A stretch of DNA of 64,000 bases from an uncultured Bacilli bacterium (lineage in GTDB: Bacteria > Bacillota_I > Bacilli_A > RF39 > UBA660), in NCBI GenBank assembly GCA_934096605.1, contig CAKOMI010000001.1, forward strand, positions 11,776 to 75,775. Reading direction: 5' to 3'. This document shows, in pieces, positions 2,681 to 58,912 of the stretch. Every line of letters begins with the position of its first letter. Positions within the stretch are counted from its first letter, which is position 1. The translations under genes and the position numbers were made by a program. The notes below the pieces were generated by a model. It made no database searches. It had not been told where the DNA came from and saw only the letters and a program-made list of their open reading frames with translations.

Positions 2681-5600
2681 ATGAATAGGAAAAGGACATT
2701 GTTGATAGTAATAGTATTTTTATTGGCTGTTAGTGTAATAGGTGCTTCATATGCCTATTTTGCAGCGACCACAAGTAATAAAGGTAATGATGAAATAACA
2801 GAAATAACTACGGAAGAATTAGGAAGTATTAAGTGGGAAGGTACTAAGGTTTATGAAAGTGGTGATTCCTTACCTGGTGAAATAGGAATTCAGACTTTTA
2901 AAGTATCTAAAAATAGTGATAATGGAAAAGGCATTTATGAAATAGACTTAGAAGGAATTATTGATGAAGCATTTAATGAAGACGTTTTGATAAGTTTATA
3001 TAAGACTACTGAACCTGATAAAAATTATGTTAAAGTAACAGAAGGTGAAAGTACAATTACAGGTGATGATGATACCAAAATGTATTATAAAGAGGATAAG
3101 TTACAAGCAGTAGGAACACCAGAGTTAGTCTATGGACCAAGAGCTTTAGAAACAAAAGATCCAATCATTTTGTATCAAGCTGACTTTGATAATACTAATT
3201 TTCCCGAAACAACATTTTATTTAGTATATGAGTATTTAAATAAAGATAATCAAGATGCAGAGCAAGGTAAAAGTTTTAGTGGTACTATAAATGTAAGATT
3301 AATACTTGAAAAAATAATAGGCGAAGAAAGTGATATCGATATTACATATACCTCTAATAGAAATGATTATGTAAATACAGATGAAACACTTACTATAACA
3401 GCTACAAGTGAAAAATATAATATAGCACGTTATAGTTTTGATAATATTATCTATACACCAGTAGATAATCCAAGTAAAACAGTAACAATAACTAAAACAT
3501 ATACTGAAGAAAAAGATAATATCATTTATTTTAAAGATGACGTTGGTAATACTAAAAGTAAAACACTAGATTTATTCTTAGATAAAACTGGACCTAGTAT
3601 TACTGCTAAAACAACTTTGGAATGGGATAAAACTAATACGATAAGTATTACTTTAGAAGATGAGAAATCTGGGTTAGCTGGATATGCTTTAACAGAGACT
3701 GAAACAGACCCTAGCGAATGGACAAGCATTACTGGAAAAAGTACAACTATAGCAAAAGACGTTACAAGTAATAAAAAATATTATGTATATGCTAAAGATG
3801 TTTTAGGTAATATTAGTCATAAAGACGTTGAGGTAAGTCATGTTGATGAAACTGCACCAGTAATTAATGAGATAAATGAGCAGGAAAATTATGGTGCCAC
3901 TAGTGTGATTTCTGTTAGTGTTAAAGATAATGAAACTGGTATAGTAGGTTATGCCTTTACAACTACAAATGAAGAACCGACTGAGTGGACAAGTGTTGAT
4001 AATGTTATAACTGAAGAAAAATATACGTATGAAGCTTCTAGTAATGGAACAATTTATTTTTGGGTTAAGGATAGAGTTGGTAATATTACTAGTAAACCAA
4101 TAAATGTTACAAAGGTTGATACAACAGCTCCAACTATTACATTGAGTTTAAGTGATGAATTAACTTGGACCTCTTCTAAAACATTAACAATGAATTTTAG
4201 CGATGATGAATCGGGACTTTTGGGATATAAAGTGACTCGTGATGATTCTGAGCCAACTGAATGGTTGAGTATAACTGGTTTTAAGATAACTAAGACTGAA
4301 ACAATTATCGGAAATGGCTTATATTATATATGGGTAAAAGATAAGGCGGGATTAGTTACTTGTGTAACTAAATTTGTGTCATACGCTGATTCAGAAAAGC
4401 CAGTTGCTAGTATGAAATTAACGTCAACTAGTGACTCTATAACTATTGATGCTAGTTCTTCTATTGATACTGAAAGTGGAATAGTGTCATATGAATATAG
4501 TTTAGATGACATTCATTATTATTATTCTATGAATCCAATATACACTTTTACAGATTTAGCAATAGGTGAATATACAGTTTATTTGAAAGTTCGTGATAAA
4601 ACTGGTAATGAAGGTTTTAGTAAAATGAATGTTGGTGTTTATCAAACATTTACAAATGAGCTTAAAACTCTTGCAAGTACAGATACAACAAATTTAATGG
4701 CTGATGATTATGAAAATTTAAGATATGTTGGTGATAACCCTAGCAATTACGTAAAAATAGGGGATAGTACGCTTGGTTTTGATTTGTATGAATTTTATTA
4801 TAATGGTGAAAAACAAGGAAATGAATTAATGTATTCGGAGGAATGTAACCAATTACTTAGTGGGTACATGGACATGATGGATTATAATGCTACATGTGAA
4901 CTAGCACATTCTTATAATGAACCAATTTTGTGGCGGGTTATTGGAGTTATAAAAGACGTAGATGATGGTAATGGTAATAAAAGTGATCGTGTTAAATTGA
5001 TTAGACAATTTCCAATTGGCAATTATTCATGGGATACTAGTTTGAGTGCCGTAAATGGTGGCTATGGTGTTAATGAATGGAGTTTAGCTGATATAATGAA
5101 ACTATTAAATCCTGGCTATGAAAATAATAAAGATAAAGAGCGATACAATACTGAAGTTACCGTTAATAATAGCTTGTTTTGGAATAAAGAAAGTGGATTA
5201 TGTTTTACCTATTCTAATAATACTGTTGGTACTAGTTCTGATGGTGGTAGTATGTGCGATTTTAAACAAAATGGGTTGTCTGATGAATTAAAAAGTATGA
5301 TTGATGCTGCTGTATGGAATACAGGTGCTATTACAAATTTGAGTAGTTTGACAAGCAGTTTTTATGAACAAGAAAGAAGCACAAGTAATGGTAAAATTTG
5401 TACTAGTGGTAACTATTGTAATGATACAATCGGAAGAACTTCTAGCTGGACTGGTAAAGTTGGTTTAATGTATCCAAGTGACTATGGCTATGCCATAGGA
5501 GGAAGTAGTAGAGATAAATGCTTAAAATCAGTTACATTAGATAAATGGAAATCAAATAATGATTGTAGTAATGGTAACTGGCTGCTTAATGTTAGTGAAG

Positions 5601-5794
5601 AAGGAGCAACCATGACACCTGGTGCCGCGTCTAATTATGCTACAAATGTTTATTCTATTAGTACTAGTGGTTATGCATATTCAGGCTATGCTTATTATAA
5701 ACACGCTATAAGTCCAGTAGTCTATTTAAAGACTAATGTTAAAGTTACTGGGGGAGATGGTTCAATAGACAATCCCTTTACTTTAGAAAATTGA
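2681..5794 (+). CDS. large secreted/surface protein, paralog A: N-terminal signal anchor, Ig-like repeats, conserved Cys-containing C-terminal domain
   Basis: An ATG with a GGAAAGAGG RBS is followed by K/R-rich residues and a hydrophobic segment. That segment ends SYAYFAA. Four to five repeats of about 95 aa carry D-x-T-A/G-P-x-I, SGL/I-x-GY and EWTS motifs. The last 380 aa or so are homologous to the C-termini of the ORFs at 27968, 29507 and 57095. The stop is TGA. Confidence 0.8.
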   Translation: MNRKRTLLIVIVFLLAVSVIGASYAYFAATTSNKGNDEITEITTEELGSIKWEGTKVYESGDSLPGEIGIQTFKVSKNSDNGKGIYEIDLEGIIDEAFNEDVLISLYKTTEPDKNYVKVTEGESTITGDDDTKMYYKEDKLQAVGTPELVYGPRALETKDPIILYQADFDNTNFPETTFYLVYEYLNKDNQDAEQGKSFSGTINVRLILEKIIGEESDIDITYTSNRNDYVNTDETLTITATSEKYNIARYSFDNIIYTPVDNPSKTVTITKTYTEEKDNIIYFKDDVGNTKSKTLDLFLDKTGPSITAKTTLEWDKTNTISITLEDEKSGLAGYALTETETDPSEWTSITGKSTTIAKDVTSNKKYYVYAKDVLGNISHKDVEVSHVDETAPVINEINEQENYGATSVISVSVKDNETGIVGYAFTTTNEEPTEWTSVDNVITEEKYTYEASSNGTIYFWVKDRVGNITSKPINVTKVDTTAPTITLSLSDELTWTSSKTLTMNFSDDESGLLGYKVTRDDSEPTEWLSITGFKITKTETIIGNGLYYIWVKDKAGLVTCVTKFVSYADSEKPVASMKLTSTSDSITIDASSSIDTESGIVSYEYSLDDIHYYYSMNPIYTFTDLAIGEYTVYLKVRDKTGNEGFSKMNVGVYQTFTNELKTLASTDTTNLMADDYENLRYVGDNPSNYVKIGDSTLGFDLYEFYYNGEKQGNELMYSEECNQLLSGYMDMMDYNATCELAHSYNEPILWRVIGVIKDVDDGNGNKSDRVKLIRQFPIGNYSWDTSLSAVNGGYGVNEWSLADIMKLLNPGYENNKDKERYNTEVTVNNSLFWNKESGLCFTYSNNTVGTSSDGGSMCDFKQNGLSDELKSMIDAAVWNTGAITNLSSLTSSFYEQERSTSNGKICTSGNYCNDTIGRTSSWTGKVGLMYPSDYGYAIGGSSRDKCLKSVTLDKWKSNNDCSNGNWLLNVSEEGATMTPGAASNYATNVYSISTSGYAYSGYAYYKHAISPVVYLKTNVKVTGGDGSIDNPFTLEN

Positions 5795-5850: not shown

Positions 5851-6300
5851 ATGGGTGATACGATGAATAAAGATGAATATCAAAAAATGGTTAAAGAATT
5901 TACACCTAAAGAAAATAAGATTAAAAAAGCTTTTATTTCTTTTTTAGTGGGTGGTTCTTTAGGTTTTGCAAGTGAGGTTGTAGTGAATATTTTAGTTAAC
6001 TCGTTTGGGATGGAAATTAGTGAAGCATATGTTTATTTATGTGTTTTATTGATCTTAATAGCTAGCTTTTTAACAGCTTTAGGTTTTTTTGATAACTTAG
6101 TTAGTAAAGTTGGGGCGGGGTTATTTTTGCCTACTACAGGTTTTGCCCATTCAATAACCTCTTCGGCATTGGATTATAAAAAAGATGGCATGATTACTGG
6201 TCTTGGATCTAGCTTTTTTAAATTAGCTGGAAGTGTTTTATTGTATGGTATTTTAGGTGGATTTTTCTTTGCGATATTAGGGGTGATCATTTATGGCTAG
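5851..6300 (+). CDS. spoVAC: stage V sporulation protein AC (SpoVAC/SpoVAEB family)
   Basis: There is strong similarity to the SpoVAC pattern (FLVGG...GAGxxxPxTGFAxxxxSxAL, a 4-TM protein of about 150 aa). An alternative start at ATG 5863 follows a GGGTGA RBS. Confidence 0.85.
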   Translation: MGDTMNKDEYQKMVKEFTPKENKIKKAFISFLVGGSLGFASEVVVNILVNSFGMEISEAYVYLCVLLILIASFLTALGFFDNLVSKVGAGLFLPTTGFAHSITSSALDYKKDGMITGLGSSFFKLAGSVLLYGILGGFFFAILGVIIYG

Positions 6301-7273
6301 TAAAAAATTAAATAATATTTTTATAAAAGATGCGTTTTCAGTAGCAGGTCCTGTTGAAAGAAAAGGTTCGATTAAGAACTATGACTTGGAGATGGATGAT
6401 TATTATTATAAAGAAAAAACTTTTGAACAAGCAGAAATTAAAATGCAAAGAGTTGTTATTGATAATGTTTTACAAAAGAATCATTTATTAAATAAGGATA
6501 TTGATGTTTTAGTAAGTGGTGATTTATCAAATCAAATAAGTGTTTCTTGTTATGCAGCAAGTCATTATAAAATACCTTTTTTTGGCGTTTATTCAGCTTG
6601 TGCATCGTTTGTAGAATCTTTAATTGTAGCTAGTGAGTTAATTGAAAATAAACGAAATGCTTATGCTATATGTGTTACTAGTTCTCATAATTTAAATGCA
6701 GAAAAGCAGTTTAGGTATCCAATAGAATATGGGGCTCCTAAACCACTTACGACAACTTTTACAGCAACGGGAGCAGTGGCAACATGCTTATCTAAAGAAA
6801 AAACAAATGTTAAAGTTGAGAGTTACACTATGGGTGAGGTCATAGATAAGGGTATTAAAGATGCTTCTTTTATGGGAGCGGTTATGGCCCCTGCAGCGGC
6901 CCATGTACTTGTTAAACACTTAGAAGAAATGAAAAGAAATGTTGATTATTATGACTTGATTTTATCAGGTGATTTGGGTTGTGTAGGAGCATCTATATTA
7001 AAGGAATATTTAAAAAGAGCTTATAATATAAAAATGAAAAAGTATTTAGATAGTGGATGTGAATTATATTTAAAAAGCCAGGAAGAAACTTTTTCAGGAG
7101 CAAGTGGACCTGTCGCTTTACCGCTTTACTTATTTAATAAAATTTTAAAAGAAAAAAAATATAGTAAGATATTAATTATTGGTACGGGTTCTTTACATAA
7201 CCCGACGATCGTTAATCAAAAGATGAGTATACCAGCGGTTGCACATGCTATTTCTTTGGAGGTGACAAAATGA
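6293..7273 (+). CDS. spoVAD: stage V sporulation protein AD (thiolase-like fold)
   Basis: SpoVAD signature blocks are present: SSHNxNAEKQFRYPxEYG, MAPAAA and DYYDLILSGDLG. It overlaps the upstream gene, consistent with operon structure. Confidence 0.9.
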   Translation: MASKKLNNIFIKDAFSVAGPVERKGSIKNYDLEMDDYYYKEKTFEQAEIKMQRVVIDNVLQKNHLLNKDIDVLVSGDLSNQISVSCYAASHYKIPFFGVYSACASFVESLIVASELIENKRNAYAICVTSSHNLNAEKQFRYPIEYGAPKPLTTTFTATGAVATCLSKEKTNVKVESYTMGEVIDKGIKDASFMGAVMAPAAAHVLVKHLEEMKRNVDYYDLILSGDLGCVGASILKEYLKRAYNIKMKKYLDSGCELYLKSQEETFSGASGPVALPLYLFNKILKEKKYSKILIIGTGSLHNPTIVNQKMSIPAVAHAISLEVTK

Positions 7274-7620
7274 TATTTTTATATGCGTTTTTAATTGCAG
7301 GGCTTTTTTGTATGAGTGCACAGATTTTGCTTGATAATACTAAGCTTACACCAGGACATATTACTAGTATTTATACTGTTTTGGGAGCTTGTTTATCATT
7401 CCTAGGAATTTATCAAAAATTAATTGATTTAGGTGGAGCTGGGGCAACAATTTTAATATCTAACTTTGGTCACTTATTATATCAAGGGGGTTATAGTGGT
7501 TTTCATGAGTTTGGTTTTATTGGCTTTTTTAGTGGACTTTTAGTAAAATCAAGTGCGGCTATTGTAGCGGCGGTGGTGTTTTCTTTCATATTTGCTTTGA
7601 TATTTAAACCTAAAAATTAG
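7270..7620 (+). CDS. spoVAEB: stage V sporulation protein AEB
   Basis: It is a 116-aa polytopic membrane protein with SpoVAE-like sequence. It overlaps spoVAD by 4 nt. Confidence 0.8.
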   Translation: MIFLYAFLIAGLFCMSAQILLDNTKLTPGHITSIYTVLGACLSFLGIYQKLIDLGGAGATILISNFGHLLYQGGYSGFHEFGFIGFFSGLLVKSSAAIVAAVVFSFIFALIFKPKN

Positions 7621-7682: not shown

Positions 7683-8627
7683 ATGAAAAAGAATAAAAAG
7701 AATAAAAATGAGAAAGTTATTTTAAATCATGAAGAATTAATGCCTACAACAATTGGAGTGCTTGATGAAAAAGATAATGGTGTTTTAGGAGTTGTTTTAA
7801 TAATTGGCTTATTTCTAGCTTGTATTTTCTTATTACCATATATAACGGAATGGTATAAAGATTTTACTAGTAAGCCAGATGTAACAGTAGCACCTAATAA
7901 TAATAAAACTAATTCAACAGATAATGATGAACAAAATACAGAAGTAACATATTCTAAGATTGATAACAATTTAAATATAACAGTTGATGACTATAAATTT
8001 ACTGGCTTTACTGTAAGTAATAATAAAATATCATTTAAAGTAACACCTAATAGTAAGGATAGTAATTACTTTATAAATCATAATTACTATTTTGAACTTT
8101 TTGATGAATCTAAGAAAATGTTACAAAGAATTAAATTTTCAAATACGGCTATTACAAAAGATATGACTTATACTTATGATATAAATGCTAGTTATAGTAA
8201 GGACGTTTATTATTTAACTTTTAGAGAAATAACTGATGATATGATACCTAATGTAACTTTAAGTAATAATACTTTAATTTGTACTAAGGGTAATGATGAA
8301 ATAGCTTATACTTTTATTAATAAAGATAAACAGAATATATTAAATAAAATAAAGATTACAACTAAAGTATTAGATACGGTAAGTGATTATGAAAGTATAT
8401 TAAATAAATATACAAAATTAGTTGATAGTACTAAAAGTGTAGAAGGAATTAGTACAACTTTAACACCAACTTTAAATGGCTTTAATTATGAAGCAAATAT
8501 TAATCTAGATGAAGCAAGTACAAGTGATATTATAAGACTATTTAATGGGGACTACATTTATTCTAAAGATAGTGTAGCTAAAGTTATTTCTTTTGAACTT
8601 AGCTCTCTTAATTATAATTGCAAATAG
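7683..8627 (+). CDS. hypothetical membrane-anchored extracellular protein
   Basis: It has a basic N-terminus and one TM helix, followed by an Asn/Thr-rich region. No motif was recognised. Confidence 0.4.
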   Translation: MKKNKKNKNEKVILNHEELMPTTIGVLDEKDNGVLGVVLIIGLFLACIFLLPYITEWYKDFTSKPDVTVAPNNNKTNSTDNDEQNTEVTYSKIDNNLNITVDDYKFTGFTVSNNKISFKVTPNSKDSNYFINHNYYFELFDESKKMLQRIKFSNTAITKDMTYTYDINASYSKDVYYLTFREITDDMIPNVTLSNNTLICTKGNDEIAYTFINKDKQNILNKIKITTKVLDTVSDYESILNKYTKLVDSTKSVEGISTTLTPTLNGFNYEANINLDEASTSDIIRLFNGDYIYSKDSVAKVISFELSSLNYNCK

Positions 8628-8695: not shown

Positions 8696-9424
8696 ATGGA
8701 TTTAGTAGTTCATTTAGAAAATTTTGATGGACCAATGGATTTGCTTTTACATTTGGTAAAAGAGACTAAGCTAGATATATATGAAATTGAAATGACTAAG
8801 ATAATAGAAAGTTATTTAGAGACAATAAGAAATTTACAAGATTTAAATATTGATATTGGTAGTGAATTTCTTTTGATGGCATCTAGTTTATTACATTTAA
8901 AGAGTAAAATGTTAATAGGAAAGACTAGTGAAAATGAAGAAGCTAGTGATGAATACGATATTACTAGTGAAGATGATTTAAAAAGAAGAATACTAGAATA
9001 TGAACAAATTAAAAATGTTACTAGTGATTTAAAAACTTTAGAAGAAAAAAGAAAAGATATTTATACTAAGTATCCTGAAAATTTAAAAGAGTATGGGGTA
9101 GAAAGTGAATTGTTTAATGAACTAGGTCTTAATGGAATTGATTTAAAGGGGGCTTTAGATAATGTTTTGAAAAGACTACATTATAAAGAACCTACAGAAA
9201 CAAAGATTACTAGTAAAGAGGTTAGTGTTAAAGATAGAACTGATTATATAAAGGATGTACTTAGTAGGAAAAGAAAAGTATGTTTTACTGATTTATTTGA
9301 ATATAGTACAAAAAAGTATATAATTGCTACGTTTTTGGCAGTTTTAGAAATGTGTAAAAGACATGAGATATTATTAGAACAAAAAAGTATTAATGATGAA
9401 ATATATGTGGAGGCGATAGAATGA
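8696..9424 (+). CDS. scpA: segregation and condensation protein A
   Basis: The N-terminus (LENFDGPMDLLLHLVKETKLDIYEIEM) is typical of ScpA. It is followed by scpB. Confidence 0.85.
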   Translation: MDLVVHLENFDGPMDLLLHLVKETKLDIYEIEMTKIIESYLETIRNLQDLNIDIGSEFLLMASSLLHLKSKMLIGKTSENEEASDEYDITSEDDLKRRILEYEQIKNVTSDLKTLEEKRKDIYTKYPENLKEYGVESELFNELGLNGIDLKGALDNVLKRLHYKEPTETKITSKEVSVKDRTDYIKDVLSRKRKVCFTDLFEYSTKKYIIATFLAVLEMCKRHEILLEQKSINDEIYVEAIE

Positions 9425-25233: not shown

Positions 25234-27375
25234 ATGAAAAAAATGAACCCAAAAAACAGGAAAATTAAACTTAATGTAAAACTTACAATGCTTGTTGTTG
25301 GGTTCTTTTTCTGTCTAATAATAATTAAACTATGTTATGTTGTGCTATCACCAAGTGTGGATGGTATTGATTTAACAAGTTTTGCAAATAATAGGAATAC
25401 GACACATGAAACGCTTTATGCTTCAAGAGGTATTATCTATGATAAAGATGGAAAACCACTGGCTAAGAATGCTAATTCATATAAAGTGGTGGCTATTTTA
25501 TCACCTTCTAGGACAACGGATATGGCAAATCCCCAGCATGTCGTTGATAAGGATAAAACAGCAACTAGCTTATGTGGAGTCCTTGCAAGTGATGAGAATA
25601 AAGCAAAATGTATAGAAGATATAACTAAATATTTAAATCAGAATTTATATCAAGTTGAACTTGGTAATTGGGGTAAGATAAGTGAAGATGAAAGACAAGC
25701 GATTTTGGCGTTAGATTTGCCGGGAATTATATTTGAAACGTTAGCTAAGAAAAGACAATATATTAATTCTTCTTGGGCGTCATATATTTTGGGTTATGCA
25801 AGAGTAAATGATGAAGACGAAATAAAAGGGGAGATGGGAATCGAATCTTATTTTGATGAACAACTTTCTGGTAGTAATGGTTATGTAGAGTATCAAAAAG
25901 ATGCATATGGCTATAAAATGGCTACTTCTAGTGAAATTAGGGAAGATGCGGTAAGCGGTAGTGACATTTATTTATCTATTAATAGTGATGTACAAAACAT
26001 TTTAGAAAATGCCGTGACTAATTTTACAAAGGATGAGAGTCAAGCTTGGACTATTTTTACAGTAATGGATGCGAAAACTGGGGCCATAGTGGGGAGCGCT
26101 ACAAACCCTAATTTTAATCCAAATACATTAGATAATTTAACAAGTTATTTAAATCCACTAGTAGCTTATCAATATGAACCTGGTAGTACAATGAAGATAT
26201 TCTCTTGGCTAGCAGCGATGGAAAATGGTGTTTATAATGGCAAAGAAGATTATTTATCTGGTACTATAACGCTTCAAGATGGACAAACCAAAATAAAAGA
26301 CTTCAACAATGTTGGATGGGGTAACATTTCTTATGATACTGGTTTTGCATATTCATCTAATGTCGCGGCTACTAATTTGGCTTTAAAACTTGGATCGGCA
26401 AAACTAAGCGATTTTTATGATTTATGTGGCTTTGGTAAGAAAACAGGTATAACTTTACCAGGTGAAGCAAGTGGTAGTATTGATTTTACTTATGAATCAG
26501 AACTTGCTAATGCTTCTTTTGGACAAGGTATAAGTGTTACACCAATTCAACTTTTACAAGCAATGAGTGCTTTTGCTAATGATGGGGTGATGGTAAAACC
26601 TTATATAGTTTCTAAAATGGTTGATGCTAGTGGTAAAGTAGTGATGGAAGGCAAAAGAACTGAGGTAGGAACAATTGGCTCGAAAGAAAATATTGAAGCA
26701 ATGAAAAGTCTTATGTATAACGTAGTATATAATAGTTTTCTTTATAACAAAAATTATGCTCCTAGTAATGTTACTATTGCTGGAAAAACTGGAACAGCCC
26801 AAATAGCAAGTCCTAGTGGTGGTTATTTAACTGGGTCTACTGATTATATTAAATCTTTTTTAGGTTTATTTCCTTATGAAAATCCTCAATATGTATTTTA
26901 TTTTGCTACTAAACAATTTAAAGGTAATTCTAATAAAATATATAGTGTAGTAAGTAACACGATTAAGGACGTGGCTAATATAGTCGAGGTTACTAATGAA
27001 GAGAGTTCAGTTGATAAAACAATGATTATTGATTTAGCACAGTATATTTCTAAAGAAACAACTGTGACGGTAGAAGAACTAAAAAAAATAGGTTTAACAC
27101 CAATAGTAATAGGAAATGGTAAATATGTTACAAATCAATATCCTTTAAATAAGGCTAGGGTAATAAAGGGTTCAAAAGTATTTATTAAGACAAATGATGA
27201 CGTGGTAACAATGCCTAATATGACTGGTTGGAGTGAAAATGAAGTTATAAGATATTGTAATTTTGTAGGTCTTAGTTATAAATTAGAAGGCTATGGCAAA
27301 GTAGTGAGTCAAAGTATAAAAGTAAATACAATAGTAGATAAAAGCATGACTTTAGAAATTAATTTGACTGTTTAA
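25234..27375 (+). CDS. pbpB: penicillin-binding protein 2B (FtsI-type transpeptidase with two C-terminal PASTA domains)
   Basis: It has an N-terminal TM helix and the transpeptidase motifs STMK, SSN and KTGTA. Two PASTA repeats are present. Confidence 0.9.
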   Translation: MKKMNPKNRKIKLNVKLTMLVVGFFFCLIIIKLCYVVLSPSVDGIDLTSFANNRNTTHETLYASRGIIYDKDGKPLAKNANSYKVVAILSPSRTTDMANPQHVVDKDKTATSLCGVLASDENKAKCIEDITKYLNQNLYQVELGNWGKISEDERQAILALDLPGIIFETLAKKRQYINSSWASYILGYARVNDEDEIKGEMGIESYFDEQLSGSNGYVEYQKDAYGYKMATSSEIREDAVSGSDIYLSINSDVQNILENAVTNFTKDESQAWTIFTVMDAKTGAIVGSATNPNFNPNTLDNLTSYLNPLVAYQYEPGSTMKIFSWLAAMENGVYNGKEDYLSGTITLQDGQTKIKDFNNVGWGNISYDTGFAYSSNVAATNLALKLGSAKLSDFYDLCGFGKKTGITLPGEASGSIDFTYESELANASFGQGISVTPIQLLQAMSAFANDGVMVKPYIVSKMVDASGKVVMEGKRTEVGTIGSKENIEAMKSLMYNVVYNSFLYNKNYAPSNVTIAGKTGTAQIASPSGGYLTGSTDYIKSFLGLFPYENPQYVFYFATKQFKGNSNKIYSVVSNTIKDVANIVEVTNEESSVDKTMIIDLAQYISKETTVTVEELKKIGLTPIVIGNGKYVTNQYPLNKARVIKGSKVFIKTNDDVVTMPNMTGWSENEVIRYCNFVGLSYKLEGYGKVVSQSIKVNTIVDKSMTLEINLTV

Positions 27376-27731: not shown

Positions 27732-27858
27732 TTAAGATAAATTTTTTAAAAAAATGTATATAGTAAGTATTTTATTTGTTTTTTGTTTATGCTAAAATTA
27801 AAGTATATTAAAGTAGAAAAGGAGGATGGTTAGCACAAGAATGTGTTAATTAAAGATT

Positions 27859-27897
27859 ATGAGATTAATTAAAAATAGGTTGGGGGGGGGGTTCTAG
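27859..27897 (+). CDS. upstream uORF MRLIKNRLGGGF* terminating just after the G10 tract
   Basis: The ATG at 27859 reads through the G-run as GGG x3 and stops at TAG 27895-97. With G9 it would fuse to the main ORF. Confidence 0.4.
   Translation: MRLIKNRLGGGF
27882..27891 (+). repeat. G10 homopolymer, a putative slipped-strand phase-variation tract
   Basis: Ten consecutive G residues in a genome of roughly 28% GC. They lie between the upstream ATG and the paralog B ORF. Confidence 0.85.
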
Positions 27898-27967: not shown

Positions 27968-29287
27968 GTGTTATTTAGTATGTTAGCATTATCTTGTATG
28001 TACTTATATAAAACATATGCGGTGTTTACAGAAGAGAAACACTTTAATGTAATCAATGGAACTGTTCAAGATCCAGGAGATATTTATTTTGCATATTATG
28101 TAGATAATACAATAACAAGGGAAATGCCTAAGAAAGGAACAGGCTATACATTAGATATCGAAAAAAGCAATTGTACAAATGGAGTAACAGTAGGTTGGAA
28201 TCAAGATAAGTGGACAGCTCTAGTTAACTATGAAAACTATAATGCCACTGATTATACAAGAACAAAATGTAATTTGTATTTTAAACAAGTAACATATTGC
28301 GATTTGCATTCCGAGACAATGGCTTGTCAAATAACAAAGTTGGCAACAACAGAAACTACAAGCTTAGCCATAGATGACTATGGCAATACAAGATATATAG
28401 GAGCAGATCCAAACAACTATGTAAGCGTAGATGGTGATATATGGCGTATCATCGGTGTTATGAAGGACATAGATGATGGTACAGGTAATAAAAGTGACAG
28501 GGTAAAATTAATAAGAGCTGATTCAATAGGTGATTATTCATGGGACACAAGTGAAAGTTCTGTAAACGAAGGATATGGAGTAAACGAATGGAGCCAAGCA
28601 GATTTAATGAAATTATTAAATCCTGGCTATGAAAGCGTGACAGTAGGTGGCTCATTATACTGGAATAATGGAACAGGCACATGCTATAATAACAGAGCTA
28701 ATGTAGCTGCTAGTTGTAATTTCACAAGTATGGGTATCAGAGAAAAATTAAAAACACTAATAAGTGATGTCGTATGGAACACAGGCAGTCAAGGAACAAA
28801 TAATTATCAAAGCACTGGTGGAGGATTAGTAAAACATTTCTATACCTATGAAAGAGGTAATAATACTGGCAAAATTTGTTCAAGCGGCAACTATTGCAAT
28901 GACTTTGTGACAAGAACAACGACATGGACAGGAAAAGTTGGCTTAATGTATCCAAGCGACTATGGCTATGCCACAAGTGGAGAAAGTATAACAAACCGAG
29001 CAACATGTCTGAATACATATTTAAATAACTGGGGTAGCAGTAGTGTAAGTGACTGCAAAAATGGTGATTGGCTATTTAATAGTAGCAGTTCCCAATGGAC
29101 ATTATCGTCAGGTGCTTACTCTTCTGTTGCTGACTTTGTGTTCTTTGTGCATAGTAGTGGAATTATCAATTTTGATTATGCATATGACACTAATGCAGTT
29201 CGTCCTGTTGTTTACCTTTTGTCATCAGTAAAAATAGTATCGGGTGATGGTTCTTCTTCAAATCCATATGTCTTATCTGGCAGCTAG
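27968..29287 (+). CDS. surface protein paralog B with the conserved C-terminal domain; the 5' end may extend to ATG 27859 after a -1 G slip
   Basis: The ORF-track ORF opens at GTG 27968. Upstream in frame, and free of stops back to TAA 27866, lies ...GGSSNKDKIELQVFREPNKKRKIILITV. The C-terminal 320 aa are homologous to the other three paralogs (WRIIGVMKDIDDGTGNKSDRVKLIR, GVNEWSQADLMKLLNPGYE, ICSSGNYCND, TWTGKVGLMYPSDYGYA, VRPVVYL...SGDGSSSNPY). Confidence 0.8.
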   Translation: MLFSMLALSCMYLYKTYAVFTEEKHFNVINGTVQDPGDIYFAYYVDNTITREMPKKGTGYTLDIEKSNCTNGVTVGWNQDKWTALVNYENYNATDYTRTKCNLYFKQVTYCDLHSETMACQITKLATTETTSLAIDDYGNTRYIGADPNNYVSVDGDIWRIIGVMKDIDDGTGNKSDRVKLIRADSIGDYSWDTSESSVNEGYGVNEWSQADLMKLLNPGYESVTVGGSLYWNNGTGTCYNNRANVAASCNFTSMGIREKLKTLISDVVWNTGSQGTNNYQSTGGGLVKHFYTYERGNNTGKICSSGNYCNDFVTRTTTWTGKVGLMYPSDYGYATSGESITNRATCLNTYLNNWGSSSVSDCKNGDWLFNSSSSQWTLSSGAYSSVADFVFFVHSSGIINFDYAYDTNAVRPVVYLLSSVKIVSGDGSSSNPYVLSGS

Positions 29288-29397
29288 TTAAAAAAATAAA
29301 TACATATTTTATTGTTTTAAAAGTTATGTTAAAATACGAAATATAAATAAAGTAGAAAAGGAGGATAGTTAGCACGTGAATGTGTTAATTAAAGATT

Positions 29398-29436
29398 ATG
29401 AGATTAATTAAAAATAGGTTGGGGGGGGGGTTCTAA
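29398..29436 (+). CDS. upstream uORF MRLIKNRLGGGF* (second copy)
   Basis: The ATG at 29398 reads through the G10 tract and stops at TAA 29434-36. Confidence 0.4.
   Translation: MRLIKNRLGGGF
29421..29430 (+). repeat. G10 homopolymer, second putative phase-variation tract
   Basis: Ten consecutive G residues, in the same context as 27882-27891. Confidence 0.85.
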
Positions 29437-29506
29437 TAATAGAGGCGAGATAGAACTTCAGGCTTTTAGAGAACCTAATAAAAAAAGAAAAATTATATTA
29501 GCAACT

Positions 29507-30805
29507 ATGTTGTTTAGTATGTTAGTATTATCTTGTATGTACTTATATAAAACATATGCCGTGTTTACAGAAGAAAAACACTTTAATGTGATAAATGGTG
29601 AGGTGCAAGATCCAGGAGATATCTATTTTGCTTATTATGCAGATAATACAATAACAAGGAGTATGCCTAAGAAAGGAACAGGCTATACTTTAGATACCGA
29701 AAAAAGTAATTGTACTAATGGAGTCATACCAAAATGGGATAATGGCGGTTGGCAATTTATAGGTGATTATAGTGATTATAATGCAACAGATTACACCAGA
29801 ACCAGATGCAATTTGTATTTTAAAAAAATAGATATAACGGCTGTTGATTATATTAAAGAGTTGGCTAAATACGATACAGAAACACTTGCTACAGATGAAG
29901 CTGGAGGTAATGTTAGGTATATAGGAAAATCTCCTGATAATTATGTAAATATTGATGGCGATATATGGCGTATCATTGGCGTTATGAAAGATATAGATGA
30001 TGGTACAGGAAAAAAGAGTGACAGAGTAAAATTAATAAGATCTTCTTCAATAGGAAAATATTCATGGGATAGTAGTGATTCAAAAGTTAATTATGGCAAG
30101 GGTGTTAATGAATGGAGTCAGGCCGATTTAATGAAACTTTTAAATCCTGGGTATGAAAGTGAGTCAGTAGGAGGCTCATTATATTGGAATGGCAAGTCGG
30201 GTACATGTTATAGTGATCAAAAAAATATTACAACAAGTTGTGATTTTACAAGTACAGGCATAAAAGATAAGTTGAAAAGATTAATAGGTAATGTTAATTG
30301 GGGGCTTGGGTCTGTTGATGGAGTAACTTATACATTTGCTAATATTTCTACCATTAAGTCATATGAATTTGAACAAAGTACTAATACGGGTAAAATTTGC
30401 GATGGGACGTATCAAGGAGGTATATACTGTACAGACACAGTAATAAGAACAACAACCTGGACCGGAAAAGTAGGCTTAATGTATCCTTCTGATTATGGTT
30501 ATGCGACAAGTGGTGGTAGTACAATTGATAGAGCAAAATGTTTAAAAGCTGCGATGCATTCTTGGAACAACGATTTGAATTTTTGCTATGAAAATAACTG
30601 GTTATCATGTGGCATTGATGAATTTACTTTAACTCCATCTCCTAGACCTGAATTTGATTATGATATTTTTTCTATTCATAATAAGGTTATTGATAGTTAT
30701 AGTGCGAATGCCTACATAAATGTTCGCCCTGTAGTATATTTAAAACCATCTGTATCTATTCAAAGCGGAGATGGCTCAGAAAATAGTCCTTTTATACTAG
30801 AATAA
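29507..30805 (+). CDS. surface protein paralog C with the conserved C-terminal domain; the 5' end may extend to ATG 29398 after a -1 G slip
   Basis: It has the same architecture as paralog B. The first 70 or so aa are nearly identical to B. The middle region is divergent. The C-terminal domain is conserved. Confidence 0.8.
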   Translation: MLFSMLVLSCMYLYKTYAVFTEEKHFNVINGEVQDPGDIYFAYYADNTITRSMPKKGTGYTLDTEKSNCTNGVIPKWDNGGWQFIGDYSDYNATDYTRTRCNLYFKKIDITAVDYIKELAKYDTETLATDEAGGNVRYIGKSPDNYVNIDGDIWRIIGVMKDIDDGTGKKSDRVKLIRSSSIGKYSWDSSDSKVNYGKGVNEWSQADLMKLLNPGYESESVGGSLYWNGKSGTCYSDQKNITTSCDFTSTGIKDKLKRLIGNVNWGLGSVDGVTYTFANISTIKSYEFEQSTNTGKICDGTYQGGIYCTDTVIRTTTWTGKVGLMYPSDYGYATSGGSTIDRAKCLKAAMHSWNNDLNFCYENNWLSCGIDEFTLTPSPRPEFDYDIFSIHNKVIDSYSANAYINVRPVVYLKPSVSIQSGDGSENSPFILE

Positions 30806-30885: not shown

Positions 30886-30906
30886 AATATAGAAAGGTTT
30901 TTGTAT

Positions 30907-31455
30907 ATGAATAAAAAAGGTTTTGTGTTTATTGAAACTATAATAGTTATATCAATACTTTTAGCATCTTTGATGATTGTGTATTCTTTATATGTTTCAT
31001 CTATTAATAAAGAAAATAAAAGATTAAGATATGATGATCCAGTTAAATTATATCAAACGTTTTATATGAAACAATATTTAAATAGTTTTCGTCTTAATGA
31101 ATTAGAGAAAAATATTACTAATGAAAATCCATATATTAATATATATGGACAAAGTGATTTATTTGGTGGATCTTTTAGTAATGAAAAAAAGTTTTTTGAA
31201 AGAATTACAGATGAACTTAATATTGAAACAATTTTACTTACTACTTACGATGTGTCTTTATTAACTGATTGCAAAGAAAATAGAAATATGCTTTGTACTA
31301 ATAATAATTTAATCGAGTACTTAAATACTTTAGATAATGATGGAAAAAGTGGCTATAGGTTAATTATTGAGTATAAAGAACAGTTGAATGGTAAGAAATG
31401 TGAAAATAAAAAAGATTGTTATTCTTTCTATTCAAATGTATGGGTAGGTGATTAA
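30907..31455 (+). CDS. type IV prepilin-like protein (pilin or pseudopilin)
   Basis: The N-terminus MNKKG|FVFIETIIVISILLASLMIVY is a class III signal with G|F and Glu at +5. The C-terminal part has paired cysteines. Confidence 0.75.
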   Translation: MNKKGFVFIETIIVISILLASLMIVYSLYVSSINKENKRLRYDDPVKLYQTFYMKQYLNSFRLNELEKNITNENPYINIYGQSDLFGGSFSNEKKFFERITDELNIETILLTTYDVSLLTDCKENRNMLCTNNNLIEYLNTLDNDGKSGYRLIIEYKEQLNGKKCENKKDCYSFYSNVWVGD

Positions 31456-32060
31456 TGATGAAAAGTAAGGGATTTACATTAGTAGAAATTATTGTAAGTG
31501 TAGCACTTATTTCTATTGTGTTACTTTTATTATTCCAATTAATGACTGATATGGAGTATGATTCTTTAACTTCTATGTTTGCTAGTGATAATCAGGTGAA
31601 TAGAGCGACTATCATAAAAAGAATTGACAAGGATTTAATGGATTATGGTCTTAAAAGTATACCTAGTATTAACAATATTACTAATGGTAAACAAATTAAG
31701 CTTAGTTTTAGTAATGGTAGTAGTAAAGATATTATTGTAACTTCTAGTACACTTACATATGATGGGGAAAGTTATACAGTTTCTTCTGGTGGTTCTTATG
31801 ATATTAATAATATAAAGATTGTATCTATACCTAGTAATTCAGAGAAACTTTGTTCTTATATGTTAAATATTGATACAAATAACGATGGTGTATGTGATGC
31901 GAACTGTGGAACTAATGAGAGTAATATGACGAAGAAAAATGATAATTATGTATATTGTCCTATTTATCAAGCTATAAAAATAGTTATACCTGTTTTGTTT
32001 AGTGAAGATGATGTGGCACTTGATGATATAGAAATATTTTATATTGGAAAATTAAGTTAG
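31455..32060 (+). CDS. type IV prepilin-like protein (pilin or pseudopilin)
   Basis: The N-terminus MMKSKG|FTLVEIIVSVALISIVLLLLFQLM is a canonical prepilin signal. Cysteines are present in the C-terminal region. Confidence 0.75.
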   Translation: MMKSKGFTLVEIIVSVALISIVLLLLFQLMTDMEYDSLTSMFASDNQVNRATIIKRIDKDLMDYGLKSIPSINNITNGKQIKLSFSNGSSKDIIVTSSTLTYDGESYTVSSGGSYDINNIKIVSIPSNSEKLCSYMLNIDTNNDGVCDANCGTNESNMTKKNDNYVYCPIYQAIKIVIPVLFSEDDVALDDIEIFYIGKLS

Positions 32061-50267: not shown

Positions 50268-50993
50268 TTATATGTCTTCATTTAATAAATTTTTTTTATA
50301 TTCATTATAAGCTTTGATTTCATTTTTATCATGATATTCTTGATATTCTATTTTTTTCTCTTTTAATATTTGTTTTACTAAGTATTCAGTAAAATAAGGA
50401 TTTCTAATTAGAATGGGACCAAGTATATATGTACCATAGAAATTGTTTTTATGAATGCCTTCAGAAGGAGATTTTGGCTGGTAGCCTGTACCAGATTTGA
50501 TATCAAATAGATGGGGGTCTTTAACGAATTTCAAAACGGAACTACGATTTTGGAAACCAATAATTTCTTCTTGAAAGTTTTTCATTGTGGCCACGGTTTC
50601 GCCGACAATTCGAAAATCAGTTTCATGGGCTTCATAATTAAATAATCCGAGGGTTTCTTTTTTGATATCATCTTTAGTGTAGTAGGCTTTACCAAAGAAA
50701 TCTAAAGCGTTACCAGTAATAATAAAGAATTTGTTTTCTTTGTAAGATTTTATAAATTCACTTTTATGCTTCAACATGTTATCTAAAACAAATAAGAAAT
50801 TTTCTTTATTACCACTGCCAATGTAGAAAATATCATATTTAGAAAAATCAATGTTATCTTCTACCGATAAGTAATGAGTAATAACTCTTACTTTATGGTT
50901 TTCTAAGTGGTGTGCAAGGGCAAGTATATTTCCATGTTCGCCATAAAGATTCATTAAGTCATAGTATAAATGGGCTATTTTAATCGTTTCCAT
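50268..50993 (-). CDS. gatD: lipid II isoglutaminyl synthase glutaminase subunit GatD (CobQ-type glutamine amidotransferase)
   Basis: It is 241 aa and begins IAHLYYDLMNLYGEHGN. It overlaps the upstream murT. Confidence 0.75.
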   Translation of the reverse strand: METIKIAHLYYDLMNLYGEHGNILALAHHLENHKVRVITHYLSVEDNIDFSKYDIFYIGSGNKENFLFVLDNMLKHKSEFIKSYKENKFFIITGNALDFFGKAYYTKDDIKKETLGLFNYEAHETDFRIVGETVATMKNFQEEIIGFQNRSSVLKFVKDPHLFDIKSGTGYQPKSPSEGIHKNNFYGTYILGPILIRNPYFTEYLVKQILKEKKIEYQEYHDKNEIKAYNEYKKNLLNEDI

Positions 50994-52329
50994 TTGCGGC
51001 CTCCTTAAATTTTGTTTTTAAAACAGACGTCATATCAAAGCAAACCATTGTATAAATATCACCTTTAGTTTCATTTAAAAGGATTTTATTTATGTCATTT
51101 AGATCATCGACCATGATAATTTTATCTTCTTTTATTTTAGCATAGTTTAATCTGACTAAAATGTCCCATTTGAAACGGCCAATTAAAACAATATGCTTGA
51201 TAGATTCTTCATTTAATAATTCAAAGTCAACGTCCCATAACCAAGATAAATCATTATATTTGTATCTTCTTGAAACATTATCAAAACCTAAGATAACGGT
51301 TTTTTCGCCATCAGCTTCGGCAATATATTTAAGACTTTGATAGTAACTTAAAGCATTTTCATTTTTACTTTCAAGCATCGTAATATCACGATCTAAAAGT
51401 TTTAATTCTTTACCTCGTTTAGTACTAACTTTATCTTTATTTAGAGCATATAAGATTTTGTTTTTCTTAATGCCAATAGAGTTACATAAAGCGTAGGCGG
51501 CAACCTCAGCATAAACAGTGAATAAAAAGTTTTTATTTAAAGAAATGGTTTCATTATCAATAGTAAATGTTTTATTTTTAAAATCAACGTTTTTAGCTAA
51601 ATAATCAGGATTACCTCTTTTAAAGTCACAGCCTGGGCAATAATATGAACCAATATGACCATAATGATAATAATAATAAATTAGTTTTCTATGGCATACT
51701 GGACAATAAGCGTTATCTAAACTAAAGTTATCTTTTTTGTTATAAGAAAGACTAGTTTTGGCAACACCATAGGTAATAACTTTACCTTTGAACATTTCTT
51801 TAGATTTCATAAGACCTGGGTCATCAGCATTTAAAATAAGCGTGGTTGATTCATCAATTGCATTAAATATTGCGTCATATACTATATCAGGAGAACCATT
51901 ACGGGCTGGTTGATCTCTTGTAATATTTGTTACAACCAAGTGAGTCATCTTATTTTTGCCAAACGCTAAATGCAAGTGTTTTTCATCTAATTCAAGTAGT
52001 AAAACGTCATGTTTAAAACGACCAAAGATAGTACAATTATTTAAAATAAGAGTTGTAATACCGCGAATACCATTACTACCACTTTCATTATAAACAACGT
52101 CTAAACCAGCATCTTTTAAAATATGATAAATAAAGTTAGTAGTTGTTCCTTTACCACTAGAACCAGTAACACCAATAACATATTTAGGATATTTTATTTT
52201 TTCTAGGACACGCTGATTCATATTGTAACTAATAGAACCAGGAAATTGGGTACCATTTTTTTTAAATAGTTTACATATATATGTTAAAATTTTATTGACT
52301 ATAATTTGTAAAGTCATCATGTTAATCAC
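50980..52329 (-). CDS. murT: lipid II isoglutaminyl synthase ligase subunit MurT
   Basis: It has the Mur ligase P-loop VIGVTGSSGKGTTT. A Cys4 zinc ribbon (CPVCH...CPGCD) and a DUF1727-like C-terminus are also present. Confidence 0.8.
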   Translation of the reverse strand: MINMMTLQIIVNKILTYICKLFKKNGTQFPGSISYNMNQRVLEKIKYPKYVIGVTGSSGKGTTTNFIYHILKDAGLDVVYNESGSNGIRGITTLILNNCTIFGRFKHDVLLLELDEKHLHLAFGKNKMTHLVVTNITRDQPARNGSPDIVYDAIFNAIDESTTLILNADDPGLMKSKEMFKGKVITYGVAKTSLSYNKKDNFSLDNAYCPVCHRKLIYYYYHYGHIGSYYCPGCDFKRGNPDYLAKNVDFKNKTFTIDNETISLNKNFLFTVYAEVAAYALCNSIGIKKNKILYALNKDKVSTKRGKELKLLDRDITMLESKNENALSYYQSLKYIAEADGEKTVILGFDNVSRRYKYNDLSWLWDVDFELLNEESIKHIVLIGRFKWDILVRLNYAKIKEDKIIMVDDLNDINKILLNETKGDIYTMVCFDMTSVLKTKFKEAANGND

Positions 52330-56994: not shown

Positions 56995-57094
56995 TCCTTT
57001 TATTCTTTAATAATTTTATCATGAATTGATAAGGAATACAATTCTATTAATGATAAAAGTTTTTTCTTGACAATTCTTTTGGGAGGAGGGTACA

Positions 57095-58912
57095 ATGATG
57101 ACATATATTAGAATAGAGGTATTGGTTATGAATAGTAAGAAAAGTTGGTCAAAAAAAATATTATTAGCTCTTGGCATATTAATAGGGTTAGTAGGCGTAA
57201 GTTATGCTTTATGGCATATAACACTTAGTGGTACAAATAATAATACAATTACAGCCACATGCTTTAATGTGTCTTTTACAGATCAAAATAATATTAGTAT
57301 TGAAAAAGCCTATCCTTTATTAGATGAAGAAGGAAAGAAATTAACACCTTATGAATTTACAATAACTAACAACTGTGATACATACGTTAAATATGATATT
57401 AACTTAGAAATATTAAATAATTCAACATTAACAAATATGGATTACATAAAATTAATGTTAGATGATGAGACACCTGCCTTAGTATCAAGTTATGATGTAA
57501 CAACAAAAACACTTAGTAATGCAAGTACAGCCTATAAAATTAAAATGAGTTATTTAAATGCTAAAGAAAGTAAAACCTATTATTTAAGATTATGGTTAGA
57601 TGAAAATGTTACTGGTGAAACAGAAGGAGTCCAAAATAATACCTTTATTTCTAAGATAACAGTAAACGCAAGTTATGCTGAAAGTGCTCCTGAATATTGT
57701 GAATTAAATCCAAATACAGCTGCATGTCAAATTGAAACATTAGCTGAAACTGACACAACTAATTTAGCAGTAGATGACTATGGCAATACAAGATATATCG
57801 GAGCGAATCCAAATAATTATGTCAGAGTAGAAGGAGAAGAATATACAAGTGATGTTTATTATGGTTATAACGGTTCTGATACTTCTTCTTATAGGGAGTA
57901 TTCTAGTTTAGATAAATGCACTCATTCCAGTACTTATTCTGCTAATTGTACATTAGTACCTAAAGGTACACCAATTTTATGGCGTATTATCGGTACAATG
58001 AAAGATATAGATGATGGTACCGGCAACAAGAGTGACAGATTAAAATTGATAAGAAATGATTCAATAGGCGAGTATTCATGGGACACAAGTGACTCAAGTG
58101 TTAATAGTGGCAATGGTGTCAATGAATGGAGCCAAGCAGATTTAATGAAGCTCTTAAATCCAGGTTATGAAAATGAAGAAATTGGTGGTTCATTATATTG
58201 GAATAATAAAAATGGTACATGCTATTACTCTTCCAATAATAAAACAACAAGTTGTGATTTCACAAATAGAGGCATAAATGGTAAATTGAAGTCATTAATA
58301 GGTAATGCCGTATGGAATACTGGTGCAAATGATGGAACAACGTATACGTATAAAAATATGAATGCTTCAGAATTTTATCAGTTAGAGAGAAGCAAGAATA
58401 TTGGTAAAATTTGCACAAGTGGCGATTATTGCAATGACTCAGTAGAAAGAACAACGACATGGACCGGTTTAGTTGGACTTATGTATTCGAGTGACTATGG
58501 ATATGCGACAAGTGGCGGCAGTACTACAGACAGAGCAACGTGTTTAAATGGTAATCTTAGTCATTGGAGTAAAAATTTTGAGTCTAACACTAATCAACAA
58601 ATTGTTACTGGATTTGAAGATTGTGTAATAAATAATTGGATATTTGATTCGTTTCTGCCACCACAGTGGACTATTTCATCAGCAAATGAGGTGTATAGTA
58701 AGGCAACTCAAGTATTTCTTGTTTGGCAATGTGTTTCCCCAAGTCCTGCAAGTAATGCTAGGCGTAAATATAACATAGATAATGATGGCCTTTCGGAAGA
58801 GACCACTTCTGGTATTGGCGCTGATGTTTTTCCAACTGTATATTTAAAATCATCTGTAAAAATTGCGTCTGGAAGTGGTTCAAAAGAGGACCCATTTGTT
58901 TTAGGAAATTGA
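57095..58912 (+). CDS. surface protein paralog D with the conserved C-terminal domain
   Basis: It has a strong GGAGGAGGG RBS. A basic-TM N-terminus ends VSYALW. A unique N-terminal module of about 190 aa is followed by the C-terminal domain. That domain is near-identical to B at DNA level over DDYGNTRYIG. The stop is TGA. Confidence 0.8.
   Translation: MMTYIRIEVLVMNSKKSWSKKILLALGILIGLVGVSYALWHITLSGTNNNTITATCFNVSFTDQNNISIEKAYPLLDEEGKKLTPYEFTITNNCDTYVKYDINLEILNNSTLTNMDYIKLMLDDETPALVSSYDVTTKTLSNASTAYKIKMSYLNAKESKTYYLRLWLDENVTGETEGVQNNTFISKITVNASYAESAPEYCELNPNTAACQIETLAETDTTNLAVDDYGNTRYIGANPNNYVRVEGEEYTSDVYYGYNGSDTSSYREYSSLDKCTHSSTYSANCTLVPKGTPILWRIIGTMKDIDDGTGNKSDRLKLIRNDSIGEYSWDTSDSSVNSGNGVNEWSQADLMKLLNPGYENEEIGGSLYWNNKNGTCYYSSNNKTTSCDFTNRGINGKLKSLIGNAVWNTGANDGTTYTYKNMNASEFYQLERSKNIGKICTSGDYCNDSVERTTTWTGLVGLMYSSDYGYATSGGSTTDRATCLNGNLSHWSKNFESNTNQQIVTGFEDCVINNWIFDSFLPPQWTISSANEVYSKATQVFLVWQCVSPSPASNARRKYNIDNDGLSEETTSGIGADVFPTVYLKSSVKIASGSGSKEDPFVLGN

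Follow-up and report, generated by a model that had tools for sequence, protein, structure and literature searches.

Poly-G tracts and a predicted lectin-like fold in a dispersed family of putative surface proteins from uncultured gut Bacilli

Introduction

At the simple-sequence contingency loci of Neisseria and Mycoplasma, bacteria of mucosal surfaces, homopolymeric tracts are found within coding sequence, as in Neisseria pilC, where poly-G occupies signal-peptide codons, or in the promoter spacer, as in N. meningitidis porA and opc and Mycoplasma vlp. Proteins with a C-type-lectin fold, on the other hand, are known as targets of diversity-generating retroelements (DGRs); examples are Bordetella phage Mtd, Treponema denticola TvpA, the phage 'tentaclins' and the DUF6273 targets. 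Here we describe a family of genes for putative exported proteins, four of which are encoded in a 64,000-nucleotide stretch of DNA (the window) from an uncultured Bacilli bacterium (GTDB lineage Bacillota_I; Bacilli_A; RF39; UBA660). The window comprises positions 11,776 to 75,775 of contig CAKOMI010000001.1 (assembly GCA_934096605.1), a 66-kb contig from a Hadza gut metagenome, and has a G+C content of 28.9%. The four genes are referred to as A, B, C and D (open reading frames, ORFs, listed at 2681, 27968, 29507 and 57095, respectively), while P- and L-numbers denote homologous proteins and fetched loci.

The domain shared by the four proteins has one solved relative, the N-terminal domain of the gut immunoglobulin A (IgA) protease IgAse/ThomasA (PDB 9qa6). 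The C-type-lectin-like core of that domain is 'double the size of a typical CTLD' (CTLD, for C-type-lectin-like domain); no other domain of the enzyme is lectin-like (PMC12237041), and the N-terminal domain has been annotated as DUF6273 (PMC12402451). It is N-terminal and fused to an M64 peptidase, and has a structural zinc site (D78/H90/C126) and no tethering disulfides (PMC12237041). The window domain, which is 19% identical to it with no sequence match at the level of hidden Markov models, lies instead at the C-terminus; six Cys but no His are conserved in it, and its family is variable and multi-copy.

Unlike the known DUF6273 targets, the window domain scores under the threshold of the Pfam DUF6273 model, which is only about half as long. 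The window proteins also differ from known DGR targets in being cellular, apparently membrane-anchored and present in many copies per genome, with putative poly-G switches in addition; their genes have no DGR parts nearby and the equivalents of the DGR variable region (VR) are degenerate. The likeness to the Neisseria and Mycoplasma loci lies in where the homopolymer is placed, either early in the coding sequence of an exported protein (its 5' region) or in the -35/-10 spacer, and in the multi-copy surface families involved. The differences are that the organisms are uncultured low-GC gut Bacilli, that the protein family is another one and that the same genes can be DGR targets.

Results

Family and fold of the C-terminal domain

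ORFs A-D are all present and intact, and an earlier note on this DNA, which had proposed a four-member family sharing a C-terminal domain, was borne out: every motif it quoted was found in the alignment. The C-terminal 320-390 residues of A, C and D are 55-60% identical to the domain of B, and more than 100 alignment columns, including six Cys predicted to form three disulfides, are invariant across the four. The domain had been called unrecognised, which holds for sequence searches. In full-length A-D it was unmatched by Pfam and NCBIfam at E<=1, the domain gave no match at threshold to PHROGs, and sequence searches of the PDB with a single sequence and with a 64-sequence profile gave no relevant match. 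The fold, by contrast, is a known one. The structure-prediction search proposed in the note gave a very confident AlphaFold2 model of B's domain from a 64-sequence alignment (predicted local distance difference test 96.7, predicted template modelling score 0.94), in which the CTLD core of strands and a helix is recognisable by structure comparison. The same comparison gave the fold of proteins annotated DUF6273, with the N-terminal domain of Thomasclavelia ramosa IgAse/ThomasA (residues 31-321) as the closest solved structure; the best matches among predicted viral structures are DUF6273 proteins and receptor-binding/tail proteins of gut phages (E down to 8e-9).

A weak trace of this relationship is present in the sequence. 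B's domain scores 14.2 bits against Pfam DUF6273 (PF19789; E 0.041, profile positions 126-170 of 172), below the 23.5-bit gathering threshold. Six of 64 diverse family members match DUF6273 at E<0.1 (best E 2.4e-4), all within their last ~50 residues, and a weak match of B to phrog_9958 falls at the same place, which is that of the VR-equivalent. Because the predicted structure matches DUF6273/CTLD proteins and is accompanied by this trace, the domain is assigned, on the model, to the DUF6273/C-type-lectin-like superfamily as a divergent, enlarged member that no current profile library captures, and not as a new fold. No canonical Ca2+/carbohydrate-binding motif (EPN/QPD, WND) is prominent among the conserved columns of the alignment, and there is no conserved His. 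Conservation is much higher in the N-terminal half of the domain (B residues 21-100 and 195-220; window ~28388-28627 and 28910-28987) than at the binding face; this half contains SWDxSxSxVNxGxGVNEWSxADLMKLLN, GLMYPSDYGYA and many invariant polar residues (R, K, D, N, E).

The phyletic survey, also proposed in the note, revealed a large family. Of 8000 candidates that were scored, 7265 gave significant matches, and a Pfam domain is absent from all 120 family matches listed. Clustering at 50% identity gives 4819 family clusters with E<=1e-3 and 996 with E<=1e-30, and 342 genomic stretches in a one-genome-per-species collection carry the family. All 76 loci fetched from other genomes, which together with the window make up the locus counts of 77 below, come from gut metagenome-assembled genomes (MAGs) labelled uncultured Tenericutes, Bacilli, Firmicutes or Erysipelotrichaceae, the hosts being human, rabbit, mouse and roe deer. 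Genomes carry many copies, UMGS1217 supplying 17 of the best 80 matches. Large members fuse the domain to Listeria-Bacteroides repeats, PKD/Ig-like repeats and DUF285; the giants P0121 (2446 aa), P0230 (3538 aa) and P0144 (5708 aa) have several lectin-like domains along with Listeria-Bacteroides repeats and DUF285.

The N-termini of A-D consist of basic residues followed by a hydrophobic segment and (S/T)YA-x-(F/W). This N-terminus is replaced by a lipoprotein signal in P0253 and by a prepilin leader in P0261, while the signal regions of P0220 (31.4 bits) and P0147 (24.3 bits) match the TasA/camelysin family Peptidase_M73 (PF12389) above threshold. The same model left the N-termini of A and D unmatched at E<=1, and the likeness of (S/T)YA-x-(F/W) to TasA/camelysin is therefore only suggestive; the hydrophobic segment could be either an uncleaved anchor or a signal peptide of TasA/camelysin type. 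Export of the family proteins is well supported by their sequences, since signal/anchor N-termini, lipoprotein and prepilin variants, camelysin/TasA matches, co-occurring surface modules and the six conserved Cys all point to it. A-D would accordingly be exposed at the surface, where they may act as adhesins.

Poly-G tracts and promoters

The listed ORFs of B and C are truncated. Each is preceded by an ATG and a G10 tract that begins 23 nt 3' of it, and these two tracts are the only runs of at least eight G in the window (Table 1). The G9/G12 readings of B and C extend the long ORF by MRLIKNRLGGGSSNKDKIELQVFREPNKKRKI.., and the G9 reading of B aligns with the in-frame homologue P0127 from 'LGGG' on (61% over 137 aa); several database members likewise start M..GGG.., as in-frame forms. 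Judged on their sequence, B and C are contingency genes, a homopolymer of at least eight nucleotides lying in the 5' coding region and its length setting the frame, and they would be expected to switch.

Across 826 kb of related loci and the window, 21 of 23 runs of at least eight G mark the 5' end of a family ORF on the coding strand. Coding-type tracts (G9-G11) are those of B and C in the window and of L008, L026 (two), L030 and L034. Promoter-type tracts, in spacers of ~17-21 nt between a TTGACA -35 and a TATAAT-like -10 element, are found in L004, L021, L022, L025, L029, L036, L037, L041, L065, L066, L072 and L073. One of the two tracts outside the family is a G10 in a TTGACA/TATAAT spacer at L030 7269-9455; the surface protein encoded behind it is of another type, having a signal peptide and the sortase motif NPQTG, and a sortase gene comes next. 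In these genomes poly-G switching apparently extends beyond the lectin-fold family.

For one homologous locus there are two independent assemblies, whose only differences over ~220 nt are one single-nucleotide polymorphism and G10 versus G9. This pair is direct evidence of natural tract-length variation at a homologous locus, not at B or C. Paralogues in L026 with identical flanks carry G9 and G11, and two scans of Joint Genome Institute metagenome contigs with the tract flanks found no tract-length variants. At the P0004/P0009 locus (L078/L079, ~1500-1540) gene callers gave an in-frame start for both G10 and G9, from two ATGs in two frames, so that two of the three tract phases may yield protein there, the products differing in their cytoplasmic tail.

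The leaders of B and C (27817-27861 and 29356-29400) contain a conserved mini-ORF, ATG TGT TAA, which ends 9 nt 5' of the pre-tract ATG; translational coupling or reinitiation is possible at these leaders. In D, the interrupted G run GGGAGGAGGG occupies the spacer position that an uninterrupted G10 has in homologues (compare L004 and L030), and its promoter may be a fixed version of the poly-G spacer promoter.

The leaders of B and C are 84% identical and the synonymous divergence (dS) is 0.3-0.5 over the first 80 codons, becoming saturated downstream. Since divergence is far lower at this end, the switch-bearing 5' end has been homogenised or recently copied, the signal being much clearer than that between B and D. 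The nonsynonymous divergence (dN) is well under dS along most of the B-C alignment and is highest in the region of residues 251-290. The earlier note had read the near-identity of B and D as recent gene conversion. The shared 26-mer is indeed exact, but the 90 nt around it reach no more than 81% identity, compared with ~72% elsewhere, and gene conversion between B and D was rejected as weakly supported.

Diversity-generating retroelements in relatives

Variability within the domain peaks at residues 251-290, a part that coincides with the VR of DGRs found beside family genes of relatives. In the AlphaFold2 model it forms the last beta-hairpins before the conserved VRPVVYL strand; phage DUF6273 targets are likewise described with the VR in such hairpins (PMC10743442). 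The variable stretch just 5' of VRPVVYL is the DGR variable region of the family, a point missed in the earlier note.

The gene for P0004, whose domain is 77% identical to that of B, is directly followed 3' by a 121-aa ORF, bAvd and a reverse transcriptase (RT; RVT_1). At this locus (L080) a 105-nt repeat links a template repeat (TR, 9016-9120) with the VR at the 3' end of the gene (8455-8559), encoding SPNANSSNANNAFNVNSDGNVNNNNAYNNNAVLP, and 16 of the 27 mismatches are at TR adenines. In L009, a Hadza MAG locus, Avd and RT homologues adjoin a family gene and are 64% identical to those of L080 (tblastn). Here 18 of 19 TR/VR mismatches fall at TR adenines, with identity at 70/71 non-A sites and 13/31 A sites. 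The L009 TR is also matched at 57-68/71 non-A sites by paralogues on other contigs and in other genomes, which indicates that the DGRs of relatives are multi-target.

At the VR position, 42 of 91 family ORFs have a GC-rich (>=0.5) island in genes otherwise of ~0.32 GC. Among 36 members that keep the register of the template, the share of NNY codons is 91.5% at the 15 template-Asn columns, 57.7% at the 19 others and 52.8% in the background, while K/E/Q/M/W account for 3.7% at the template-Asn columns against 20.4% in the background. Several DGR-type members also carry poly-G tracts (L008, L021, L026, L037, L072 and the P0004 locus), so that the two mechanisms meet in the same genes. The DGR cassettes also hold a conserved ORF of ~120 aa between the TR and avd (L080 9338-9703; L009 1673-2017 and 6476-6820; L079 3856-4221), of which L009 has a second copy 4.8 kb away. 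Its similarity to MutS domain I is weak (E 0.0027, below threshold); it may be a MutS-like DGR accessory protein.

In the window, the VR-equivalent of B has NNY at 15/15 template-Asn columns and K/E/Q/M/W at none (p ~7e-5 against the 52.8% background). The four VR-equivalents have no common DNA scaffold.

Genes of the family in the window

The start of gene A at ATG 2681 agrees with that of the earlier note, and its repeats match PKD_4 (Pfam, E 2e-6). Gene D likely starts at ATG 57128 and not at the listed ATG 57095, because the latter overlaps D's own -10 box; homologue P0124 begins MNGKKKWSKILL, matching this start. A different N-terminal module had been claimed for each copy, which is wrong for B and C: they share theirs, and A-D have three module types. 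An insert of ~50 residues with two Cys is present in A (4760-4930) and D (57830-57990) and absent from B and C. It lies between the first strand (DDYGNxRYIGxxPNNYV) and the domain core, and both forms are common across the family.

The chromosomal neighbours of A-D are ordinary (PBP, for penicillin-binding protein, ruvAB, dnaE/polC, obg, relA and spoVA), gene A lying beside spoVA, scpAB and dnaE genes. Since the four genes are in separate housekeeping contexts they are not assembly copies of one gene, an alternative that the earlier note had allowed for, and since the surrounding genes are ordinary chromosomal ones the family genes are neither assembly artefact nor prophage.

The window further encodes SpoVAC/AD/AEb-like proteins, as read from their sequences, a PBP with a PASTA domain and a MurT-like ligase (5851-7620, 25234-27375 and 50980-52329). 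On the strength of these genes the organism has a cell wall and possibly sporulates, although its relatives carry the label 'Tenericutes' in the International Nucleotide Sequence Database Collaboration. The prepilin-like genes (30901-32060) lie upstream of ruvAB, and a lone T2SSE-type ATPase gene (55708-56994) is 24 kb away; pilus/competence genes thus appear scattered and not gathered in one operon.

Table 1 Features of the lectin-fold family genes and their neighbours in the window.
Feature	Coordinates	Strand	Remarks
Gene A	2681..5794	+	1037 aa; signal/anchor (..GASYAYF..), N-terminal beta module, PKD/Ig-like repeats, lectin-like domain ~4658-5791 with ~50-aa Cys-containing insert
VR-equivalent of A	5615-5716		11/15 NNY, partly eroded
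Extended -10-like element upstream of B	27790..27798	+	TGCTAAAAT; read from sequence, putative promoter
Upstream ATG of B and G10 tract	27859-27861; 27882-27891	+	G10 frame stops at TAG 27895; G9 or G12 fuses MRLIKNRLGGGSSNKDK..KKRKIILITVLFSML to the long ORF
Gene B as listed	27968..29287	+	439 aa from GTG; partial membrane anchor, ~100-aa N-terminal module, lectin-like domain 28328-29284
VR-equivalent of B	29105..29206	+	SSGAYSSVADFVFFVHSSGIINFDYAYDTNAVRP; DGR scaffold residues kept, NNY at 15/15 template-Asn columns, GC 0.38
Extended -10-like element upstream of C	29327-29335	+	TGTTAAAAT; read from sequence, putative promoter
Upstream ATG of C and G10 tract	29398-29400; 29421-29430	+	G10 frame stops at TAA 29434; G9 restores frame
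Gene C as listed	29507..30805	+	432 aa; tandem paralogue of B, lectin-like domain 29849-30802
VR-equivalent of C	30629-30730		Degenerate, GC 0.31, out of register with template
Two prepilin-like ORFs 3' of C	30901-31455, 31455-32060	+	N_methyl E 2.7e-7 for the second; neighbours of family genes
Promoter of D	57067..57096	+	TTGACA, 18-nt spacer ending in interrupted G run GGGAGGAGGG (57081-57090), TACAAT; 11/12 consensus match
Gene D	57128..58912	+	594 aa from ATG 57128 (likely start); signal/anchor (..GVSYALW..), beta-rich N-terminal module, lectin-like domain 57728-58909 with insert
VR-equivalent of D	58733-58834		Degenerate, 11/15 NNY, scaffold lost

Discussion

The fold, the signal/anchor, the surface modules, the poly-G tracts and the DGR targeting of relatives together argue for a diversifying, phase-variable ligand-binding family, which is in line with the dispersed, diversifying family with phase-variable members envisaged in the earlier note. 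A-D are probably dispersed, diversifying, exported ligand-binding paralogues, of which B and C would be switchable and B a former DGR target. Within this interpretation we count as demonstrated the homology, the fold, the tracts with their frame logic, the DGRs of relatives and the codon footprint.

Each protein starts with a positively charged tail and a hydrophobic segment that ends in (S/T)YA-x-(F/W); behind these come a beta-rich stalk module, which is variable, and at the C-terminus the putative ligand-binding head, whose variable binding face would be the last two beta-hairpins, ~34 residues before VRPVVYL. Poly-G slippage would switch expression ON or OFF or change its level, the tract being placed in cytoplasmic-tail codons, where in-frame forms read it as Gly-Gly-Gly, or otherwise in the -35/-10 spacer. 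In many relatives, adenine-directed DGR hypermutation rewrites the binding face over the last ~34 codons before VRPVVYL. In the window, B and C would be contingency genes caught OFF (G10), with G9 as the ON state, D would have a fixed near-consensus promoter and A has no switch; no DGR within the window is coupled to A-D, and B, given its codon footprint, is most simply viewed as a former target. The likely role is to bind ligands that vary in the gut, be they glycans or proteins, of the host or of microbes, and stochastic expression may limit exposure to IgA or phage.

Several observations weigh against this interpretation. The tract lengths of B and C rest on a single assembly, in which both are G10, and assembled homopolymer lengths can be unreliable. 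The ATGs at 27859 and 29398 have no Shine-Dalgarno sequence at normal spacing, the sole AGGAGG being 33 nt upstream. The domain's N-terminal half, conserved and polar, could point to another conserved function or interaction, or to a metal site, and the IgAse N-terminal domain, which has no known function, can be dispensed with in IgA cleavage (PMC12237041). As regards hypermutation, tblastn with the L080 sequences found no homologue of Avd, RT or the 121-aa ORF in the 64-kb window, and no TR-like repeat is present in it, the 3' 800 nt of each gene repeating only in its paralogues. The window VR-equivalents have a GC of 0.31-0.43, against >=0.5 in the 42 family members with an island, and match the two known TRs at only 25-44/71 non-A sites.

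A YxDD screen for RTs in the window gave unrelated matches only, and Pfam scans of window ORFs, which did not include every ORF, gave no RVT_1. Because RT, Avd and TR were all absent from the window and the VR-equivalents are AT-rich and match the TRs poorly, DGR action on A-D is probably absent. The codon footprint of B is, as a sequence pattern, a sign of past targeting that does not prove targeting today. Most simply, A-D are family members that a DGR has ceased to serve, B having left last and C and D having lost the scaffold.

It could be argued instead that B, and perhaps A, are still active targets diversified in trans from a cassette outside the window: remote, multi-target action is seen in relatives, where paralogues match the L009 TR, B retains the scaffold residues and the full set of NNY codons at template-Asn columns, and the source contig covers only 66 kb of the genome. 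The VR-equivalent of B, however, forms no GC island (0.38 versus 0.5-0.63 in TR-matching VRs) and agrees with the two known TRs at no more than 44/71 and 44/69 non-A sites, and since the four VR-equivalents share no DNA scaffold a single TR could serve at most one of them; we regard continued targeting in trans as unlikely. That B and C are decaying, frameshifted pseudogenes, and the family a relic in this genome, is very improbable. Both are out of frame in the assembly, as are 8/8 coding-type tracts in assemblies with respect to the nearest upstream ATG, and the VR-equivalents have decayed toward genome composition, yet the homopolymer is the only lesion, with more than 430 intact codons downstream in B and C and dN well under dS along most of their alignment. 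Tract, leader and promoter are moreover conserved between B and C and, by position, across species, and there are both in-frame database forms and the 1-nt length polymorphism at a homologous locus.

The earlier note had placed the family beside pilins, which is true in the window and suggests that A-D could serve a type IV pilus or a competence pseudopilus as adhesins, at its tip or as accessory proteins. Two prepilin-like ORFs lie 3' of C, the T2SSE ATPase gene is divergent from D, and in P0261 the domain is joined to a genuine prepilin N-terminus. Against such a role, which seems quite improbable, A-D have no G-F-T-L-x-E prepilin motif, A lies amid spoVA, scpAB and dnaE, and the family is scattered through housekeeping regions. 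Pilin linkage was rejected as a general feature of the family, a prepilin-like neighbour being found at only 7/77 family loci, and the adjacency in the window is most likely incidental. An origin of A-D as receptor-binding or tail-fibre proteins of a prophage, or an enzymatic function of the domain in place of a cellular adhesin, would fit the viral structural matches (DUF6273 and receptor-binding/tail proteins of gut phages), the weak PHROG match and the very conserved, polar N-terminal half of the domain; with the genes in ordinary chromosomal surroundings, we consider it scarcely conceivable.

Returning to the reading of A-D as exported, ligand-binding paralogues, no description of poly-G tracts combined with DGRs on this family was found in the literature searched (RF39 phase variation; DGR with homopolymeric phase variation). 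The size and taxonomic focus of the unannotated subfamily, the two-architecture poly-G switch and the stacking of this switch on DGRs in relatives appear to be new. With this finding, thousands of so far blank proteins of little-known bacteria from human and animal guts receive an annotation, both structural and mechanistic, and the family is linked to its sole solved relative, the IgAse N-terminal domain. As a scaffold that is compact and hypermutable, the domain could supply engineered binders. The window alone is more modest, with four members, two of them switchable and none demonstrably hypermutated.

For the lineage as a whole we see an even chance that these gut Bacilli keep many lectin-fold receptors per genome (up to 17 were fetched from one) under stacked poly-G copy choice and multi-target DGRs, with copies entering and leaving DGR control and B a recent escapee. 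If this is true, it would amount to a combinatorial surface-receptor repertoire, in which stochastic copy choice is combined with targeted hypermutation of the binding site, and would provide a natural system for studying pressure from host, phage and IgA.

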